Below, one piece after another: positions 7,237 to 29,033 of a DNA stretch of 52,793 bases. The DNA lies in IMG/VR virus record IMGVR_UViG_3300000530_000031, positions 1 to 52,793 of that record; one strand, 5' to 3'. The stretch's first letter is position 1; every line of letters begins with the position of its first letter. The notes below the pieces were generated by a model. The model was not told where the DNA came from. It saw only the letters and a program-made list of their open reading frames with translations, and searched no databases. The translations under genes and the position numbers were made by a program. This stretch comes from a virus. Taxonomy: Duplodnaviria > Caudoviricetes.

Positions 7237-7790
7237 TTTTTACTCCTTTCGAATCTAGGTTTTATGTTCTGATCTCTAAAGATCTTTTGTACTGCCACTG
7301 CCTGGCTTACACAATCTTCTAGTGCATTGTGCAGGCCCACTTTATTTTTTTCTCTGGGATCACCATGCACACCAAATAATGTGCGGCTATCTCTGATCTG
7401 CCAGAACTGCCAAGGGGTAGGCCATCCCATCTGTCGGTAAAGATTTTCTAATATAGCTATGTCAAAAACCGGACCTTGTGCCCAGATACAGTCCGCACCT
7501 ACTAAAAATCTATTGAGTTCACGATACATAGTTGCCAGGCTGACTCGATTGTCTGTGCTAAATGCTTCATCTCTGACATCATCGGACTGTTGCATCCACC
7601 AGTTAAGCGTATCCTCTTGTACATTACGCCCTAGGGTTGTTTGCTCATCCACGTCTATACGATAGTACAATCCCGGTCCAGGTTCTCGTGTGATATCGTA
7701 AGGATCAAACTTGACGCATCCAATAGTCAGTATCACGCAATCAGGCCTAGTTCCGAGACTTTCTAAATCTAACATTACATCAAGAGCCAT
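7233..7790 (-). CDS. DEDDh 3'-5' exonuclease (DexA/Rv2179c-like)
   Basis: MLDLESLG, WAQGPVFD, RDSRT and HNALED motifs. Confidence 0.88.
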   Translation of the reverse strand: MALDVMLDLESLGTRPDCVILTIGCVKFDPYDITREPGPGLYYRIDVDEQTTLGRNVQEDTLNWWMQQSDDVRDEAFSTDNRVSLATMYRELNRFLVGADCIWAQGPVFDIAILENLYRQMGWPTPWQFWQIRDSRTLFGVHGDPREKNKVGLHNALEDCVSQAVAVQKIFRDQNIKPRFERSKK

Positions 7791-7791
7791 T

Positions 7792-8274
7792 TTATTTGTC
7801 TTTATCTAGAATTTTACAAGATTCTGCTTCGACTACACGACGACGCAGTCCACTGGAACTAAAACTGTGGTCTCTACCATTGAATACTATCTCTATGCCA
7901 CGGTTATCACATTCAGCACGTCCAGTAAAATCTGTATGTTCGTATTCTACACCTAGCACACGCACATCAATAGGTAAGATTAACAGTAAGTCGATTAAAT
8001 CCTGTTCTGTTTGGTAAACCACCACTTCATCAACATATCTACAGGCGCTGAGCTGTATCTGACGTTCTACTATGCTTTGGACGGGCCGATTTTTGGTTTC
8101 GGGTCTATCAATAGTAGGATCGGTTTGTAGTCCAGCGATAAGATAATCACAGTGATTTTTAGCTTCGGCTAGCATGGCTATGTGTCCGGCATGTGGGCCT
8201 AGATCAAACGCTGAAAATACCACGCCAATTTTCTTTCCCTGCTCTTTGAGTTCTTTGATCTTATTGAATATCAT
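7792..8274 (-). CDS. Cytidylyltransferase (TagD/glycerol-3-phosphate CTase family)
   Basis: FSAFDL.HAGH (HxGH), CDYLIAGL, YVDEV and R.HSFSSS motifs. Confidence 0.85.
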   Translation of the reverse strand: MIFNKIKELKEQGKKIGVVFSAFDLGPHAGHIAMLAEAKNHCDYLIAGLQTDPTIDRPETKNRPVQSIVERQIQLSACRYVDEVVVYQTEQDLIDLLLILPIDVRVLGVEYEHTDFTGRAECDNRGIEIVFNGRDHSFSSSGLRRRVVEAESCKILDKDK

Positions 8275-21614: not shown

Positions 21615-22322
21615 TTATAGTATTTTATCTTTTTTTAATCTAGAGAAAAACAAATCCATCCAATATTTGTAGCCATACATAGAGGGGTGGAAATTATCTT
21701 TGCTCAGGGTACCCTTAAATTTTGAAGATTCGTATAATGCTCGATCTTCATCAAATATCCAATTAGAAAAATCAATTTGGTCTATTAGATATTGATGTTC
21801 AGGATACCTAGAAACTCCATATTCGCAGGTATTCTCAACCATGACATTGGGATCTGATTTAAACTGATTGATCATAGAAGTAAAATAAAAAGGTATATTT
21901 AATGATCTTAGATATCCTTGTATTTTAACTATTTCTATTAGACTATTATAGTGTAATTCTTTATGGTCGATAAACTTGTGTATTCCAGAAAATAACAGAT
22001 TAGAGAATTGGTGTTTGTGATGATCCCACCCCCCTATACCTCCGGTAAAAATGTAAGGAACTGAATTGATATAACCCTTTGGCATCCAATCTAAGAAAAG
22101 ATTATCTGATGTCACAGGAACATCATAGCGACTAAATCCAGACCAACTAACATATACAACATCAAATTGTTGTTTAATAGTTTCAACTAATACCGAATCT
22201 GCAATAAAGCGGTTACCAGCAGCAGGGTAAGCTACATTCGCCACATCATGCCCAGGATAATGTATATCTATTATCGCAGATAATTCAGATGCAAAGCTGC
22301 ACCCAGCGACTAAAATTTTCAT
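21615..22322 (-). CDS. SGNH/GDSL-like hydrolase-fold protein
   Basis: GCSF, A.GN, W[ST]..SR.D and D.FHP motifs; AT-rich. Confidence 0.6.
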   Translation of the reverse strand: MKILVAGCSFASELSAIIDIHYPGHDVANVAYPAAGNRFIADSVLVETIKQQFDVVYVSWSGFSRYDVPVTSDNLFLDWMPKGYINSVPYIFTGGIGGWDHHKHQFSNLLFSGIHKFIDHKELHYNSLIEIVKIQGYLRSLNIPFYFTSMINQFKSDPNVMVENTCEYGVSRYPEHQYLIDQIDFSNWIFDEDRALYESSKFKGTLSKDNFHPSMYGYKYWMDLFFSRLKKDKIL

Positions 22323-22330
22323 CCGATCAA

Positions 22331-23431
22331 TTATAATTCCGGTAATTGATCATAATCAACTGTGTCGCTCATAACACCAATGACATATGATGTTGATTCT
22401 GATTCCTGTAGTGCTGTCTGTTTCTTGCTAGTGTCTGTGTGTTTATTAAACCAGGGAATCGGGGTAGTCTTGGGTGCAGACTGCTGGTATTTAATACCTA
22501 TCTCTTTTAGTGCGTTTACGGCAGTATAATCAACAAAATCACGCAGAATATTAGCATTAAGACCTATAACTGGTCCTTTCTTGAACAGATAATCTGCCCA
22601 GGCCTTTTCTTCGCGTATCACATCTGTATATAGCGCATATACTTCTGCTTCACATTCAGATTTGATCGCACTAAATCTTGCGTCTTCCTTGACCACTTGA
22701 TTGATCAAGTATGCAGTCCAACCTTTGTGTAGTAATTCGTCTTGCAATATCAAGCTGATGATGTTACCGTTGCCCATGAAGATACGATTTTCTACCATGG
22801 CTAAACTTGTAGCAAATGATACCATGAAACGGAAAGCCTCTAGTGCATAGCTAGCGTGTAACGCCATCCATATAGCACGTACATATTCTTTTTCTGCGAT
22901 CTGTTCTCCTGTTTCTTTCCTACAGTTCAACTGGTGCAGTGCATCATAATAGTTACCTACACTAGCAGCCATGGCAACAATTTCTTCAGTGTCGTGGATA
23001 GTATTGAAAATATCTTTGGGCACATTATAGATGTTACGGATAATGTGACTATAGCTGCGGCTGTGGATATTTGTTTCGAAGAAAGTCCAGTTATAGACCA
23101 GTGCTTCTAATTCAGGCAAGCTGATCACAGGAGTAAACACCTGGCTAGGGCCACGACCTTGTAAACTATCTAGTGCAGTCTGGCGTAGTAGGTTACTGGT
23201 AAAAATATGTTTTACAGCATCGCTAGCATCTTTAAAATCCTGTGCATCTTTGGTCAATGAGATTTCTTCAGGCACCCAAAAGAATCCTCTAGCAGTCTTT
23301 TCAAAGTCTGCGATCTTATTATACTTTACTTCTTCGAATCTCTGGATAGTCACCGGACCTGCGGGATCTAGAAACATCTTGCGATTTAGATAATCTGTTT
23401 TTGTTTTTAAATTATATTGTTGTTTGCTCAT
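22331..23431 (-). CDS. nrdB: Class Ia ribonucleotide reductase beta subunit
   Basis: FFWVPEE, LDSLQ, ETNIHSRSY, LEAFRF.VSF, DELLH and ALQESE..SY motifs. Confidence 0.97.
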   Translation of the reverse strand: MSKQQYNLKTKTDYLNRKMFLDPAGPVTIQRFEEVKYNKIADFEKTARGFFWVPEEISLTKDAQDFKDASDAVKHIFTSNLLRQTALDSLQGRGPSQVFTPVISLPELEALVYNWTFFETNIHSRSYSHIIRNIYNVPKDIFNTIHDTEEIVAMAASVGNYYDALHQLNCRKETGEQIAEKEYVRAIWMALHASYALEAFRFMVSFATSLAMVENRIFMGNGNIISLILQDELLHKGWTAYLINQVVKEDARFSAIKSECEAEVYALYTDVIREEKAWADYLFKKGPVIGLNANILRDFVDYTAVNALKEIGIKYQQSAPKTTPIPWFNKHTDTSKKQTALQESESTSYVIGVMSDTVDYDQLPEL

Positions 23432-24459
23432 AGCTTACAGGCCTCACAGTCCTCTTGATCGTCGAAGTCTATTGTCTCTAATGGCTTATCTTTTGAGATA
23501 ATATCTAAATCAGCTTTAACACCTTGTTTATCAATGAGACTATAATAAAAGGTCTTTAATCCCCAGAGCTGTGCCTGCATCAAGTTTTTAGCGATCAGTG
23601 TAGTTGGTACCTTACGATCTGGAAAATGTCTCGGCGAATAAAAAGTATTAGTACTTATGCTCTGATCGACATAGGCAGCAAGAACAGCAGCTGTTTTCAA
23701 ATAACCGGCACAGTCCTTTTGGTCCCACATCAGCTGATATCGATTTTTTAGCTTATGGTATTCAGGAACTACCTGTACTAGGCTACCAGCTTTAGATTCT
23801 TTCACTGAGATCAACTGCATGGGCATTTCGATTCCATTGGTGCTGTTGATAACCACCGATGAGCTTTCCACTGGTGCTACGGCCATCTGTGTAGCATTAC
23901 GCACACCATACTGTTTCATCTGTGTTCTTAAAGTCTCCCAATCTAATTCAGGAGAGAAATCAGCTAGTTCATTGACGCCTGCAGCTCTTAATTCCCAAGG
24001 GAATTGTCCTTGCCCATAGCGTGTCTTGCTGCTATCCGCACAAGCGCCACGTTCGCGGGCTAATTCAACTGATGCTTCAGTGAGATAGTATGCCTGATGT
24101 TCCATCCAGCTTTTAACTTCTTGTAGTGCATCTTTATCGCCGTAACGGAGATTACGTTTGGCATGCCAGTAGGCTAGATTAGTTACACCGATACCCAAGG
24201 GGCGGATCTCATCATTGCTGAGTTTCGACTGTATGCTCAAGAAATCCTGATAGTCTAGGATGTTGTTAAGACTGCGATGCAGTATACGGCACGCACGACG
24301 CATGTCTTCAGGGTTACGGAAGGCTCCCCAGTTGATGCTTCCCAGTGTGCAGAGTGCCACTCTCCCCTCGGCTTCATCGATTTCATAGTATTCGTATTCG
24401 TCGTCTAACTCTTCGGGCAACTGGTCGATTACTTCGTAGTAAGTCACTTGCTGATTCAT
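23428..24459 (-). CDS. nrdA: Ribonucleotide reductase alpha subunit, C-terminal fragment
   Basis: ALCTLGSIN, RPLGIG, APVESSS, DQSISTN, LKTFYY and the C-terminal CEAC; own AAGGA RBS; acidic N-terminal extension. Confidence 0.93.
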   Translation of the reverse strand: MNQQVTYYEVIDQLPEELDDEYEYYEIDEAEGRVALCTLGSINWGAFRNPEDMRRACRILHRSLNNILDYQDFLSIQSKLSNDEIRPLGIGVTNLAYWHAKRNLRYGDKDALQEVKSWMEHQAYYLTEASVELARERGACADSSKTRYGQGQFPWELRAAGVNELADFSPELDWETLRTQMKQYGVRNATQMAVAPVESSSVVINSTNGIEMPMQLISVKESKAGSLVQVVPEYHKLKNRYQLMWDQKDCAGYLKTAAVLAAYVDQSISTNTFYSPRHFPDRKVPTTLIAKNLMQAQLWGLKTFYYSLIDKQGVKADLDIISKDKPLETIDFDDQEDCEACKL

Positions 24460-24977
24460 TTAATATCCTTGTAGAGTGATTCTACTTTTTCTACTGCTTC
24501 GGGCGTTATTTCTTCATCAATGCCTTCACGCATACCCGCGAGTTTAACGATTAAAGCACGACCTTGGATGATGTTGATATCTTGACGCTGGCGAACTAAG
24601 TGTTCAAATGCTTCAGTAGCGTCACTACGACCTTCAAACGGGCCCGCTATGATTAAACCATCGTCGTCTGTAATGTAAAAGTCAATCGATTCAATCTTGC
24701 TAATCTGTGATTGTAGTTTGCGACGGCGGTCGTATTCTGCCATACCTTCATCTACTTTTAACATTTTCTTTGAGTGTGCTACTTGCGAAGCGAGTGCCTT
24801 TTTAGCATCTTCTTCGGAGTTGTGTAGCGTAGTGTGCACCACTTTATCGCCGTGCTTTACTACTACTTGATGTCTTCCGCCTGGATGAGGGACGATAGAA
24901 TGGCTGATTCCGCCGACATCGACGCTCTTGCTTATTTTACCTTCTACGATGTCTATCATTTCTCTTAATGTTTTCAT
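24456..24977 (-). CDS. Hypothetical protein inserted within nrdA
   Basis: ORF translationally coupled on both sides (ATGA overlaps); MKTLREMIDIVE N-terminus. Confidence 0.75.
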   Translation of the reverse strand: MKTLREMIDIVEGKISKSVDVGGISHSIVPHPGGRHQVVVKHGDKVVHTTLHNSEEDAKKALASQVAHSKKMLKVDEGMAEYDRRRKLQSQISKIESIDFYITDDDGLIIAGPFEGRSDATEAFEHLVRQRQDINIIQGRALIVKLAGMREGIDEEITPEAVEKVESLYKDIK

Positions 24978-25738
24978 AATGTTCTACCTTGTTTGTATGT
25001 TGTGTTCTCTTTCAAGAACTTTTCTAAATCTTCAGCGTTAAGTTTAACATTCTTAACACCGTTTGTCACCCATCTATGACTCGAGGTCGCAGAGGATAGT
25101 TGCTTACGCTGTTCTTCACTTCTGTAGTAAGGGTCATACTTTACTTCCGCTAATCCCGCCTTACTCAGTTTAGCATTTACTTCTTCTAACAGTTCTGTTC
25201 TGCCGTTAGTAAATCTCTGCTTCATAATCATAACACTAACATTTAACTCCTGCTTGAGAGCATCATCCATTTCTTTACGCAGAATGTAGTCACCGCTCTT
25301 GTTATTCTCAATCGCATACTTTACTACAGCATCTACTATCATCTGTTTAGTAATATCGGGTTTAGCACGACTATTTTTCATATCCGATTGTAGCATTGAC
25401 CTACGATTACTTAAATCTTTCATTTCCTCTTCCGAATACTTCTCAGTAGTATTACCACCATCTCCGCCGTGCGTCATATTGTAGCCGTTCTTAAATGTAT
25501 CGAACTGCTTAACATAATAACGCTCTTTACGCTTAGCCGCTTGTTTAGTAGTAGTTTCGCATAACTGTTCAGATACTATGTTCTCTACACCATATTTACG
25601 AATAGCACGATGGAAGTGTCTTTCTGACCCTTCTAATGCTCCTTCAATATGTTCTTCTAACCGTTCTATCATAGTCTTCTTAGTGTAGCCTACATACTTC
25701 TTACCGTTAAGTATATGACAATAAACAATGTATTTCAT
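24974..25738 (-). mobile_element. GIY-YIG homing endonuclease inserted within nrdA
   Basis: YIVY...KKYVGYT..R..EH, AIRKYG, E..Y and GYNMTHGGDG motifs; own CATAAATA promoter (25755-25762) and AGGAG RBS. Confidence 0.88.
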
Positions 25739-25781
25739 ATTATTCTCCTACACTTATTTATGACTGAAATACTATTACCTA

Positions 25782-27257
25782 CTATTTTATCTTCCTTATT
25801 GATACTATGTCGTTCGATTTATTCGCCATAAACTTCTCAACATCTGTCTTCTTAACTCTGATTAGTTTTCTTTCGGGGTCAAGTTTCTTAAACGGCTTGG
25901 TCGGAAGCAAAATCTCCAGGCACAAGTTTGACTGATAGATTGTGTGATACTCAGGATCAAAGGGTCCTTGGTTCATGACATTGTCAATGAACACTAAGTA
26001 GATCCTTCCAGTGTCTGTGCGTTCTTTTAAAATGCCACCTTTGAATACATCTTCTGCATTCATGGTCTTTTTACGCAGGCCTTTTTGTCGTTCGTATTTT
26101 ACATACAGCTCTTCAAACTTTTTAGTATCTCGATAGAATGCTTCGTATAAGTCTGGCACTTCATTGGGATCAAAGAAAGTGATATCTTCTTTGTTTTTAA
26201 ATCTGCGCCAGAAGAATGAACTTAGGACAACACCATAGTCCATGTGGCGTACACGGGTTTCTTCTGTGCCTTGATTGTTCTTAAGCACGATCAGATCATC
26301 AAACTGATGGTGCCAGATGGGATAAAACACAGTAGCACTAGCGTTACGGATACCACCTTGGCTACAACTACGCAGGTCACCAAACCATTTCTTCAGGAAA
26401 GGTATCATGCCCGTGTGCATGATTTCGCCGCCACGGATAGGTGCACCTAATGGACGCAACCGACCAATCTCTAGGCCAATGCCAGCACGTTTGCTGGCGT
26501 ACTTAGCCATCATCTCACCTGATGCAAAGATGCTGTCAAGGTCATCATCGCTACGGATAAGCACGCATGAACTAAACTGTTTAGTGGGGGTGCCTAGACC
26601 TGCTAGCACAGGAGTAGCGAGAGTAAACAAGCCATCACTGGCTGCATTGTAGTATTCCTTTATATAACGCATGCGAGCACTATTAGGTTCTTCTTTATGG
26701 AACACTGTAGCAGCGGCAACCATATAACGGATCTGCGGAGTTTCGTAGATCTCTTTGGTAGCTCGATTGCGCACCAGATATTTTTCGATCAACTGTTCGA
26801 TAGCTGCGTAACTGTACTGTTCATCTTTTTCGTGATCCAGCATGTCGTTCATGCGATTCCAATCGTCTTTGGTATACCACTCTAGCAATTCAGGAGTGTA
26901 TAATCCTAAACCAACATTCTTTTTCACGATCTCATAGATATGTGGAACTTCATAATCACCATAGACATCTTTGCGCAACATGCTTAGGCGTTGTTTACCT
27001 GCTACATATTGATAATTTGTGTGTCCTACATCTGGATTGTGTTCTGCATCGATTAGATCTACTATAGCACGCAGAGTGATCTCGTCGATCTCTCTTGTGG
27101 TGATGCCATCATAAAAATGAGGTTGACTCTTGATCTCTATCATCGACTGACTGACGTCTGCGATGCCCTGGCAAACTTTTGTAACCTGTGCTTGCCATTT
27201 TTCTACTGCCAATGGCTCTCTACGGCCACTTCTTTTAGTAACGTAAATATTTGACAT
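25782..27257 (-). CDS. nrdA: Ribonucleotide reductase alpha subunit, N-terminal fragment
   Basis: ATP cone (VTKRSG), ETPQ, FSSC, SQGG.R and QSNLCLE motifs; ends in a basic non-NrdA tail. Confidence 0.95.
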   Translation of the reverse strand: MSNIYVTKRSGRREPLAVEKWQAQVTKVCQGIADVSQSMIEIKSQPHFYDGITTREIDEITLRAIVDLIDAEHNPDVGHTNYQYVAGKQRLSMLRKDVYGDYEVPHIYEIVKKNVGLGLYTPELLEWYTKDDWNRMNDMLDHEKDEQYSYAAIEQLIEKYLVRNRATKEIYETPQIRYMVAAATVFHKEEPNSARMRYIKEYYNAASDGLFTLATPVLAGLGTPTKQFSSCVLIRSDDDLDSIFASGEMMAKYASKRAGIGLEIGRLRPLGAPIRGGEIMHTGMIPFLKKWFGDLRSCSQGGIRNASATVFYPIWHHQFDDLIVLKNNQGTEETRVRHMDYGVVLSSFFWRRFKNKEDITFFDPNEVPDLYEAFYRDTKKFEELYVKYERQKGLRKKTMNAEDVFKGGILKERTDTGRIYLVFIDNVMNQGPFDPEYHTIYQSNLCLEILLPTKPFKKLDPERKLIRVKKTDVEKFMANKSNDIVSIRKIK

Positions 27258-27267
27258 TGATATACTC

Positions 27268-27717
27268 TTATAAATCTTCTAGTTTTAAATCTTCTTGGGG
27301 AAAGATGCGAATTAATTTATGTGTTTCATTGAACTGCTTACTATTTAAGATCTCACCATCCGTCATATTAAGTATATATTTTCCTTGATCGATCCAAGCT
27401 AAATTATACTGGTGTCTTGTGCTGTGGTCCTGATAGATCCGCATCTCTATAGATAAATCTCTGTGGTGATCTGTTAAAGCAATAGTATATATGATCGCTA
27501 GACATTTTGCAATATCACAGTAATAATTATCTGAGATCAGCGTCCAAGGATCGGGCCAATTTTCATGATCTTTTAAGTCTAGGTAATAAGGACTAAAAGG
27601 TGCTCGACTCCACAGGATCGCAGTCAATTCTAAGGCTTTTTCCAGTGGTTTTGAGTCTAAATCAGAGCGAAAACGTCTCCATTCGGCTAGTCTTTCTTCC
27701 GTGGGTAACTTGAACAT
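27268..27717 (-). CDS. Conserved hypothetical phage protein
   Basis: RL..WR.FR and WPDPWTLI.DN.YC segments. Confidence 0.7.
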   Translation of the reverse strand: MFKLPTEERLAEWRRFRSDLDSKPLEKALELTAILWSRAPFSPYYLDLKDHENWPDPWTLISDNYYCDIAKCLAIIYTIALTDHHRDLSIEMRIYQDHSTRHQYNLAWIDQGKYILNMTDGEILNSKQFNETHKLIRIFPQEDLKLEDL

Positions 27718-27722
27718 TCGTG

Positions 27723-28295
27723 TTATACTAAATTAGTGATAGTATATAAAATAGTAGTCGGACTTATAGTTGTATAATTTATATCAACTTGAGTGGTGTT
27801 GGCAGTTAAATTAAATACTACGTCTGTAGGACCAGTTTCAGTATAGTCTTCTTCGTATGATACTGTTGAAGTTACACCGTTAAACGAAGACCTAATTGTA
27901 CCTGATCTAAAGGAAGTTCCTTGAGACAAAGTATAGCTAAAGACCGATGCATTAGAACTAAAATTATCCACAGTGCCAGTGCTACTAATGGGTAAAAATT
28001 TACTAACAGGAGTTGGTATAGAAGATGTTATGGCAGTAACATTACTTTCAACATTAGATACCAGCAGTGATAGATTCGCGATAGCAGAATTAGTGCCGTT
28101 AGTAAAATTCAACACACTAAATTCTGTTAAAATCTCAGTATGACCTAATACCGGTGCACCTTCTTGCAGAGTTCCATTACCGATATATAATCTACGTGTG
28201 TCTTGGCTCCACCCAAATTCGCCACCTGCTAGTTGCGGTAGATCCTGTTCTAATCCTCTGCGTACCTGTATCTGACTTATCTGCACTATGGCCAT
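27723..28295 (-). CDS. Virion structural protein (tail-fibre N-terminal domain)
   Basis: QIQVRRG...LPQLAGGEFGW..DTRRLYIGNG. Confidence 0.75.
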   Translation of the reverse strand: MAIVQISQIQVRRGLEQDLPQLAGGEFGWSQDTRRLYIGNGTLQEGAPVLGHTEILTEFSVLNFTNGTNSAIANLSLLVSNVESNVTAITSSIPTPVSKFLPISSTGTVDNFSSNASVFSYTLSQGTSFRSGTIRSSFNGVTSTVSYEEDYTETGPTDVVFNLTANTTQVDINYTTISPTTILYTITNLV

Positions 28296-28322: not shown

Positions 28323-29033
28323 TTAGTTTGTGAGATAGTATAGCTCGACACGTTTTAACCAAGCATCGTGATATTTTTTAAAATCTGCTCCTTCCAGCAC
28401 GAATTCTTGGTAAGCAGGTGTTTCGTAGACGCCGGCGGAGATCTCTTTAGGCTGTGCACACATCAGTATCACACCATCTTTAATGTCTGTACCATGCATG
28501 TTATTATGTGCTGCTGAATAGGCGCAGAGTTGCAGGAAATAATCTTCGATCCATTCGCGCTTTTTAGGTCGGTTGGTTTGTTTAAAATCTAGTATCGCTG
28601 GGCGACCTCTCCAGATACCTACACAGTCTGTAGTGCCTGCATATAATCCACTATAATAAACCGGTATTTCTACGCCCCAGAATTCATCTACATGCGTTAG
28701 TCCTTCGAGAATAACCTGTGCTGCCATAAACCAGCTGGGGTGTGCATAAGGATTGCTGGGCAGGGGTTTCATATCGTCCATGAGAATATAACTCTCAAGA
28801 TAGCTGTGCATGCGTGTACCACGATTAGCAGCTTCTGTGGTGATTTGTTGGGCTTGCTTTTCCCCAACACGACGCTTCCAGTTATTTAATGCGTCAATCT
28901 TTTCCTGAGGTTTTGTACGATCTAAAATCGTAGTAACACTAGGAACTCGTGAACCATCTGGCAATGCATAATGTCGTTTTCCATCAACACTAGTTCTGCT
29001 GATGGCAGTATAGTCAAATTTTTGGGTAATCAT
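28323..29033 (-). CDS. PD-(D/E)XK exonuclease
   Basis: PSVTTIL, RGT.MH, YAGTTD, ILDFKQ and QL.AY motifs. Confidence 0.9.
   Translation of the reverse strand: MITQKFDYTAISRTSVDGKRHYALPDGSRVPSVTTILDRTKPQEKIDALNNWKRRVGEKQAQQITTEAANRGTRMHSYLESYILMDDMKPLPSNPYAHPSWFMAAQVILEGLTHVDEFWGVEIPVYYSGLYAGTTDCVGIWRGRPAILDFKQTNRPKKREWIEDYFLQLCAYSAAHNNMHGTDIKDGVILMCAQPKEISAGVYETPAYQEFVLEGADFKKYHDAWLKRVELYYLTN

Follow-up and report, generated by a model that had tools for sequence, protein, structure and literature searches.

A phage nrdA gene in two pieces, with conserved tails on either side of a GIY-YIG homing endonuclease cassette

Introduction

The closest described counterpart of the locus examined here is the nrdA gene of phage Aeh1, which encodes the alpha subunit of class Ia ribonucleotide reductase (RNR) and is split by the homing endonuclease gene mobE. 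This nrdA-a/mobE/nrdA-b system was reportedly described by Friedrich and colleagues in 2007. In Aeh1, NrdA-a ends in a basic tail with an isoelectric point (pI) of 10.4, and NrdA-b begins with an acidic tail with a pI of 3.8 (Crona et al. 2010, PMC3045599). We analyzed a 52.8-kb virus record from IMG/VR, IMGVR_UViG_3300000530_000031 (the window, meaning the whole stretch of 52,793 nucleotides; CheckV completeness 12%), in which nrdA is broken in the same loop and the two pieces carry a basic tail and an acidic head around a GIY-YIG homing endonuclease gene.

The biochemistry of the Aeh1 enzyme provides the background against which such a locus can be read. Deleting the Aeh1 tails abolished activity, but the a/b heterodimer was still formed. 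What was lost without the tails was the dimer (a/b)2 driven by deoxyadenosine triphosphate (dATP), and the dissociation constant for NrdB in the presence of dATP rose from 0.007 to 1.4 uM. The NrdA proteins of Aeh1 were purified as separate polypeptides with their tails intact. Crona and colleagues suggested that the mobile element had supplied the tails as domains for protein interaction and left open a direct charge–charge contact between them; they noted that the tails had no matches in databases (PMC3045599). In phage T4, the topoisomerase genes for gp39 and gp60 were split by a mobA cassette with tails (a C-terminal extension, CTE, and an N-terminal extension, NTE), and the endonucleases were lost or replaced by VSR or GIY-YIG enzymes while the tails stayed (10.1101/2022.08.31.505936).

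We consider it probable, at roughly 80%, that the window holds an Aeh1-type class Ia RNR encoded as “genes in pieces”, with a cassette in the loop between the equivalents of Cys439 and Cys462, translated cassette ends that act as tails, reassembly without splicing, and a need for the tails in (a/b)2 formation and NrdB binding.

Results

The break in nrdA lies within a block of five genes on the minus strand (22331-27257), which the list of open reading frames (ORFs) gives as nrdA-a, the endonuclease gene, ORF173, nrdA-b, and nrdB (Table 1). An earlier reading of the letters of the window, the original prediction, had placed this break between the radical cysteine and the redox cysteine, and the alignment to E. 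coli NrdA, the Pfam matches, and the positions of the motifs all agree with it. Residues 4-456 of E. coli NrdA align to the N-terminal piece and residues 451-760 to the C-terminal piece. Because PF02867 is covered by both pieces together (positions 1-222 on the first, after PF03477 for the ATP-cone and PF00317 for the all-alpha domain, and 222-522 on the second), no RNR barrel sequence has been lost, and the 10-stranded barrel domain is complete. NrdA-a thus comprises ATP-cone, all-alpha domain, and first barrel half, with the Cys225- and Cys439-equivalents in the motifs SSCVL (229) and SNLCLE (443). NrdA-b holds the second barrel half with the Cys462- and Tyr730/731-equivalents and the C-terminal Cys pair, in ALCTL (35), FYYSL (304), and DCEACKL (337). 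Counting Asn437 and Glu441 beside Cys439, every catalytic residue has been kept, as had been claimed. These catalytic positions are numbered as in the E. coli enzyme. Part of this numbering is also given in PMC3045599. The break itself is in the loop between the strands that bear the Cys439- and Cys462-equivalents, with nothing lost and nothing duplicated.

The boundaries of the extra sequence can be read from relatives in which the gene is whole. The 80 closest IMG/VR sequences are 81-85% identical over the NrdA-b part, and in about 70 of them nrdA is contiguous and both tails are absent. At the insertion point these contiguous genes read ...CCEILLPTKSFKRLD-DEEGRIALCTL..., the exact point falling between LD and DE. 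In the window, the N-terminal piece runs through ...PTKPFKKLD into 31 extra residues and then two stops, and NrdA-b has 27 extra residues ahead of DEAEGRVALCTL. The N tail is exactly as had been described, with 10 Lys or Arg and 4 Asp or Glu in 31 residues, and has a pI of 10.4. For the acidic head, the predicted composition is right (11 Asp or Glu, no Lys or Arg, and 5 Tyr in the first 30 residues of NrdA-b), but the predicted length of 30 residues is not, since the residues DEAEGRVAL are native NrdA and lie outside the non-homologous head, which is 27 residues long by comparison with contiguous relatives. The tails are not a product of chance, as they are absent from contiguous relatives and recur in split ones.

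The same pair of tails is present in more than 40 IMG/VR contigs. Most of these split loci were found by scanning IMG/VR with the head pattern DDEYEY[YF]E, which returned 46 stretches; 43 are nrdA-b heads and three are unrelated ORFs. A pattern made from the N tail returned 10 stretches, all of them at NrdA-a ends and Aeh1 itself among them. The suggested use as a general protein-docking tag finds no support in these distributions. Loci newly picked by the N tail also bear the head, with slight changes from the head pattern, and the conservation of the head is therefore not merely a matter of ascertainment. There are two types of N tail, type 1 being like that of the window and type 2 reading PTVAMGTTKKKFIKVKK..., with an upstream part that resembles PTVPMG of Aeh1; both are paired with a nearly identical head.

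For 15 distinct type-1 loci, we estimated the proportions of nonsynonymous (pN) and synonymous (pS) differences, reported as pN/pS instead of dN/dS because the synonymous sites are saturated. The N tail gave a pN of 0.153 and a pS of 0.728 (pN/pS ~0.21), the head 0.042 and 0.657 (~0.06), and the enzyme cores 0.143-0.154 and 0.80-0.83 (0.17-0.19). These ratios support the view that the tails are functional sequence that has been selected, under purifying selection like that on the enzyme core.

The N tail also reaches beyond the clade of the window. The NrdA cores of Aeh1 and of the Yersinia phage fPS-90 (Tequatrovirus, NC_055723) are 40-41% identical to that of the window, and all three phages share a motif in the N tail, RKLIRVKKTDVEKF in the window, KMLFKVKKSEVDKF in Aeh1, and RLIKIKKSDVAKF in fPS-90. 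The local alignment score of the window tail with that of Aeh1 was 47, against 22.2 +/- 4.3 for shuffles, and was reached by none of 5000 shuffles (one of 5000 in an earlier run); with fPS-90, the score was 48, reached by none of 5000 composition-preserving shuffles. In hhalign, the Aeh1 tail matched the alignment of the family with a probability of 93% (E 2.5e-7). By these comparisons, the N tail is homologous to the tails of Aeh1 and fPS-90, despite an unrelated endonuclease. The pattern of charge is kept in all three clades (tails with a pI of 9.7-10.7, heads with a pI of 4.1), and the three heads are alike in composition and have the word DDEY/DEEY in common.

Among T4-like phages, 23 rows of records (e.g., HY01, KF925357/NC_027349) match the tail region at 88% coverage. 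In fPS-90, the one record of these that was analyzed, the match is a split nrdA annotated as two separate reductase genes and a “homing endonuclease”, and the HY01 records have no annotation under the match. Alignments of the N tail to NrdA of phages PA5oct, GR28A, and Marfa were rejected as spurious BLAST extensions, these genes being contiguous and without an insertion.

What lies between the two pieces varies far more than the tails do. Across the family, the gap separating nrdA-a from nrdA-b ranges from 7 to 1632 nucleotides, and the slot holds the GIY-YIG endonuclease of the window, a second GIY-YIG type (MNYSGFIYEW..., PF01541, E 2.2e-5), a 243-residue ORF with no Pfam match that we counted as a third endonuclease type, varied small ORFans, or nothing. 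The endonuclease of the window matches PF01541 (GIY-YIG, E 5.9e-6) and PHROG 314, “homing endonuclease” (E 1.4e-24), and blastp gave no significant match between it and MobE of Aeh1 or the endonuclease of fPS-90. The slot is empty in two contigs with a 7-nucleotide gap (L003/L090 and L106) and in three with a 45-nucleotide gap (L006, L101, and L104), and in these loci the tails persist with no endonuclease at all. The 45-nucleotide remnant matches the 3' end of the cargo ORF of contig L010, which indicates that this form arose by deletion of a former insert. In the 7-nucleotide form, the final codons of the tail contain a Shine-Dalgarno-like AGGAAG, and so do those of the NrdA-a tail of the window. 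A search for re-fused long proteins that bear the head found one candidate, and none was scored, which is weak evidence.

ORF173, the second gene of the insert, has no Pfam or PHROG family and no match in cultured phages, and in a large protein collection it has only three protein clusters. It shares its first ~13 and last ~20 residues with a 98-residue ORF at the same place in contig L083 (6001-6294), and the middles differ. It can be described as a mosaic small cargo gene; other inserts bear unrelated small ORFs that start with MNKNIRDYINLIE... or MNE.IK.L....

Gene trees are consistent with a moving element. In the tree of nrdA-b DNA including the head, made with a quick maximum-likelihood (ML) method, the split or contiguous state requires 7 changes. 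In a tree of the distal NrdA-b core, which excludes the head as well as the 20 codons that follow Cys462 and from which contig L074 was dropped for want of the anchor motif, the state requires 20 changes among 89 rows, with at least 9 changes forced by starred branches, against a shuffled mean of 24.6. The split state is thus scattered over the gene tree. The cassette takes sequence near the site along with it but leaves distal sequence behind, as would be expected from homing with co-conversion or from recombination with contiguous alleles. In our view, the tail pair is a module that is conserved and heritable and moves horizontally.

The block is tightly packed. Along it, the intergenic distances are 43 nucleotides and then three 4-nucleotide overlaps, and ORF173, NrdA-C, and NrdB are chained through such overlaps. 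The spacer had been given correctly in the original prediction; the two ORFs in the insert, the GIY-YIG rather than HNH (MobE) nature of the endonuclease, and the overlapping chain had been absent from it. With an ATGA overlap with ORF173 and AAGGA 6 nucleotides upstream of its start, nrdA-b is probably translated in a manner coupled to ORF173. Promoter-like sites between the pieces were no more frequent than in shuffles (16 vs. 14.2 +/- 3.7), and the same was true of terminator-like sites (7 vs. 3.7 +/- 1.9).

Table 1. Features of the split nrdA locus, in window coordinates
Feature	Position	Strand	Basis or detail
nrdA-a, N-terminal piece of class Ia RNR alpha subunit, 491 residues	25782..27257	-	ORF, Pfam, E. 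coli NrdA alignment
Basic C-terminal tail of NrdA-a, residues 461-491 (PERK...RKIK)	25785..25877	-	GC 33%
43-nucleotide spacer	25739..25781	-	Second in-frame stop; ribosome-binding site (AGGAG) for the endonuclease
Free-standing GIY-YIG homing endonuclease gene, 254 residues	24974..25738	-	Pfam PF01541, PHROG 314
ORF173, ORFan cargo gene, 173 residues	24456..24977	-	4-nucleotide overlaps with endonuclease stop and nrdA-b start
Acidic N-terminal head of NrdA-b, residues 1-27 (MNQQ...YYEI)	24379..24459	-	
nrdA-b, C-terminal piece, 343 residues	23428..24459	-	ORF, Pfam, E. coli NrdA alignment
nrdB, RNR small subunit	22331..23431	-	PF00268, E 1.1e-42; 4-nucleotide overlap with nrdA-b stop

The junction of nrdA-b and nrdB is a second place where sequence has been inserted in relatives. 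In contig L083, a 229-residue NUMOD3 endonuclease (7325-8011) lies between the two genes, and it can be called MobE-like because it is 54% identical over 103 residues to the intragenic endonuclease of fPS-90. Contigs of sequencing runs X1-X3 have 743 extra letters at this junction (window 23374-23510). The window itself has the 4-nucleotide overlap there and no inserted endonuclease.

Upstream of the block, on the minus strand, are a PD-(D/E)XK-type exonuclease (28323-29033; PHROG 298, E 2.9e-56) and a 190-residue ORF (27723-28295) with weak matches to virion or minor head proteins; the ORFs at 27268-27717 and 21615-22322 have no family match. We found no near-identical DNA in cultured phages, and the closest cultured NrdA proteins, those of Xanthomonas phages BUDD and X1, are 65% identical at the amino acid level. 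Relatives of the window's nrdA sit on contigs of 260-350 kb (e.g., L113 with 348,701 bp and L050 with 261,673 bp). Given the size of these contigs and the low completeness of the window, the clade probably consists of jumbo phages.

Discussion

In the mechanism we propose, a mobile cassette would have entered the loop that lies between the strands of the barrel bearing the radical Cys and the redox Cys, and its ends would have come to be translated as the basic C-terminal tail of NrdA-a and the acidic N-terminal head of NrdA-b. Two polypeptides would be made separately from one tightly packed operon and would come together again with no splicing of RNA or protein. If Aeh1 is a guide, the tails may be needed for an active (a/b)2-beta2 enzyme mainly through (a/b)2 assembly and tight binding of NrdB, and not for the pairing of a and b as such. 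Different homing endonucleases and small cargo genes would occupy the slot between the halves one after another, or it would stay empty. That the pieces remain separate in vivo and that the tails have such a function is thus suggested by the genes and by the Aeh1 enzyme.

Several points weigh against this reading. The proteins and their assembly are predicted here from the genes, and the function of the tails is borrowed from Aeh1, whose core is ~41% identical. The heads give far less than the N tails do when compared between clades: the score of the window head with that of Aeh1 was reached by 2875 of 5000 shuffles, with an hhalign probability of 1.8%, and the match with fPS-90 was only marginal (207 of 5000). 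Because loci were picked with DDEYEY[YF]E, the invariance of those 8 head residues arises partly by construction. The saturation of synonymous sites means that only ratios of proportions are meaningful in the selection estimate, and all trees were made by the quick ML method.

The alternative that survives best, and that we nonetheless consider rather unlikely, is the one closest to the original prediction, in which the tails are a direct “velcro” between the halves, the basic tail binding the acidic head and so holding NrdA-a and NrdA-b together. Opposite charge is kept in the three clades, the tails begin side by side since both flank one loop, and a charge contact between the tails was left open by Crona and colleagues (PMC3045599). 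However, the Aeh1 fragments formed the a/b heterodimer even when the tails had been removed (PMC3045599), and this weakens the idea of a heterodimerization device. In addition, the strongly diverged type 2 N tail (34% identical in A1) pairs with an almost unchanged head, so that no covariation is seen between the two. A co-fold of the tails only (NrdA-a 452-491 with NrdA-b 1-36), run with an 18-row alignment for each and no controls, gave scores of 0.31 and 0.30, the mark being 0.32, and speaks neither for nor against such binding. Of the predicted heterodimerization tails, the part that is supported is that they are selected, functional sequence; a role in a/b pairing is less likely.

It is very improbable that the tails merely result from neutral, functionless translation into cassette DNA and that the halves rejoin via the native barrel interface alone. 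This interface is large, and the pairing of tail-less Aeh1 fragments (PMC3045599) would fit such a view. Neutral sequence would not, however, be expected to show the constraint found here, where the pN/pS of the N tail equals that of the core and that of the head is lower. The tails are also kept after the endonuclease has been lost, the N tail is conserved between phages with ~41% identical NrdA cores, and the deletion of the tails in Aeh1 abolished activity (PMC3045599).

We give still less credence to a restoration of nrdA at the RNA or protein level, whether by an intron, a split intein, translational bypass, or a degenerate intein remnant. Such routes do exist nearby: the nrdA genes of relatives bear real split inteins, at Cys439 in contig L069 and near residue 297 in contig L006, and the bypass in T4 gene 60 is tied to a related cassette (10.1101/2022.08.31.505936). 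In the window, no Rfam family reached its gathering score, and the insert is coding throughout except for 43 nucleotides, in agreement with the predicted lack of an intron. The predicted lack of an intein is borne out as well, as no Hint or Intein Pfam domain was matched on the nrdA fragments while the positive controls L069 and L006 match PF14890 and PF07591. At the junctions, the tail begins with Pro and the head ends in Glu-Ile before Asp, with no Cys/Ser/Thr and no His-Asn, and two in-frame stops follow nrdA-a. In Aeh1, moreover, purification yielded two distinct polypeptides whose tails were intact (PMC3045599). Four short contigs of metatranscriptome library X16 fall on nrdA-a (26686-26912), the boundary of the endonuclease and ORF173 (24737-25004), and nrdA-b (23870-24367), the contig on nrdA-b being 90-95% alike and hence from a relative. 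As an RNA library may contain DNA, these contigs prove neither transcription nor a lack of splicing. Among the contigs of the sequencing runs, none joined the two sides of the insert directly, which is weak evidence, as contigs only were searched and the RNA library may hold DNA; stretches with no coverage carry no information.

The split inteins of the relatives are of interest in their own right. In L069 (1-2950), a close relative of the window, nrdA is a “fractured gene”, split at the Cys439-equivalent codon (between ...QSNL and C...) some 20 codons from the tail-type site. A 311-residue endonuclease-like ORF with a weak match to the AHH/HNH superfamily lies between its halves, both of which match the Pfam domain Intein_splicing. 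In some split-with-tails relatives, L006 (2-2604) and, by tblastn, also L104, L116, and L121, nrdA-a is interrupted again in the vicinity of residue 297. Some 19 residues beyond ...RSC, with CVTPDTW..., the first piece comes to an end. It is followed by a 369-residue ORF with no Pfam match and then by a piece whose start is an almost complete Hint domain (PT-HINT, E 3.5e-7). Here nrdA is in three pieces, possibly with an atypically short N-intein.

Least probable of all is that the split nrdA is a decaying pseudogene in a phage that relies on the host RNR, since the catalytic motifs are all kept in both pieces, purifying selection extends across 40+ contigs, and the nrdA pieces are translationally chained to nrdB.

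Returning to the Aeh1-type reading, the principle behind it, that fragments of an essential enzyme are reassembled via tails brought by a mobile element, has already been published for Aeh1 (PMC3045599). The main idea of the original prediction is consequently not a discovery. For the most part it rediscovers the findings of Crona et al. 2010, and its mechanism is phrased too narrowly for the data. Our literature search found no paper on a GIY-YIG-associated split nrdA with these tails, although the supplements of PMC3045599 and of the 2022 preprint may list some relatives. What the window and its relatives add is a homologous N tail in the company of an unrelated endonuclease, together with a large series of natural variants. 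Comparative material of this kind was missing from the Aeh1 work; here it comprises dozens of tail variants, a single head type that pairs with either of two N-tail types, and loci in which an endonuclease is present or absent. This natural mutational series can be used for mapping what the tails contact. The locus also shows clearly how endonucleases replace one another at a single site. On balance, and with only modest conviction, we favor the further view that the tail pair is an old, portable module for “split-gene repair” that spreads on its own across unrelated lineages of phages (T4-like Straboviridae, Aeh1, and a clade of large uncultivated phages) and outlives any one endonuclease, the nrdA slot being a reusable landing pad where ORFan cargo genes and endonucleases of at least three families turn over. 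If this is true, the published view of the tails as one-off foreign DNA from the mobE event in Aeh1 is too narrow.

The locus can finally be set beside the systems it most resembles. Dassa and colleagues are said to have described, in 2009, fractured genes with split inteins. These resemble the window in having an endonuclease gene between the nrdA halves, as L069 from the same clade exemplifies, but their halves are ligated by trans-splicing, and the window has neither a Hint domain nor splice-junction residues. With the gp39/gp60 split of T4, as described in the preprint noted above, the window shares tails that outlast the endonuclease, a swapping of endonuclease families, and insertions that are independent and recent-looking; the enzyme is a different one, and the 50-nucleotide translational bypass found there was not seen in the window. 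Phage fPS-90 has the same layout of nrdA-N, endonuclease, and nrdA-C and the same N-tail motif, (R/K)LI(K/R)(I/V)KKSDV.KF, but an HNH endonuclease and a T4-like genome. Aeh1 differs from the window in that MobE is an HNH enzyme and the head is ~17-23 residues long instead of 27, while the insert of the window has an extra ORFan gene and lies in an uncultivated large phage. Beyond these differences, the two systems share the split loop, a free-standing endonuclease between the halves, tails that are basic on NrdA-a and acidic on NrdA-b, and a homologous N tail.

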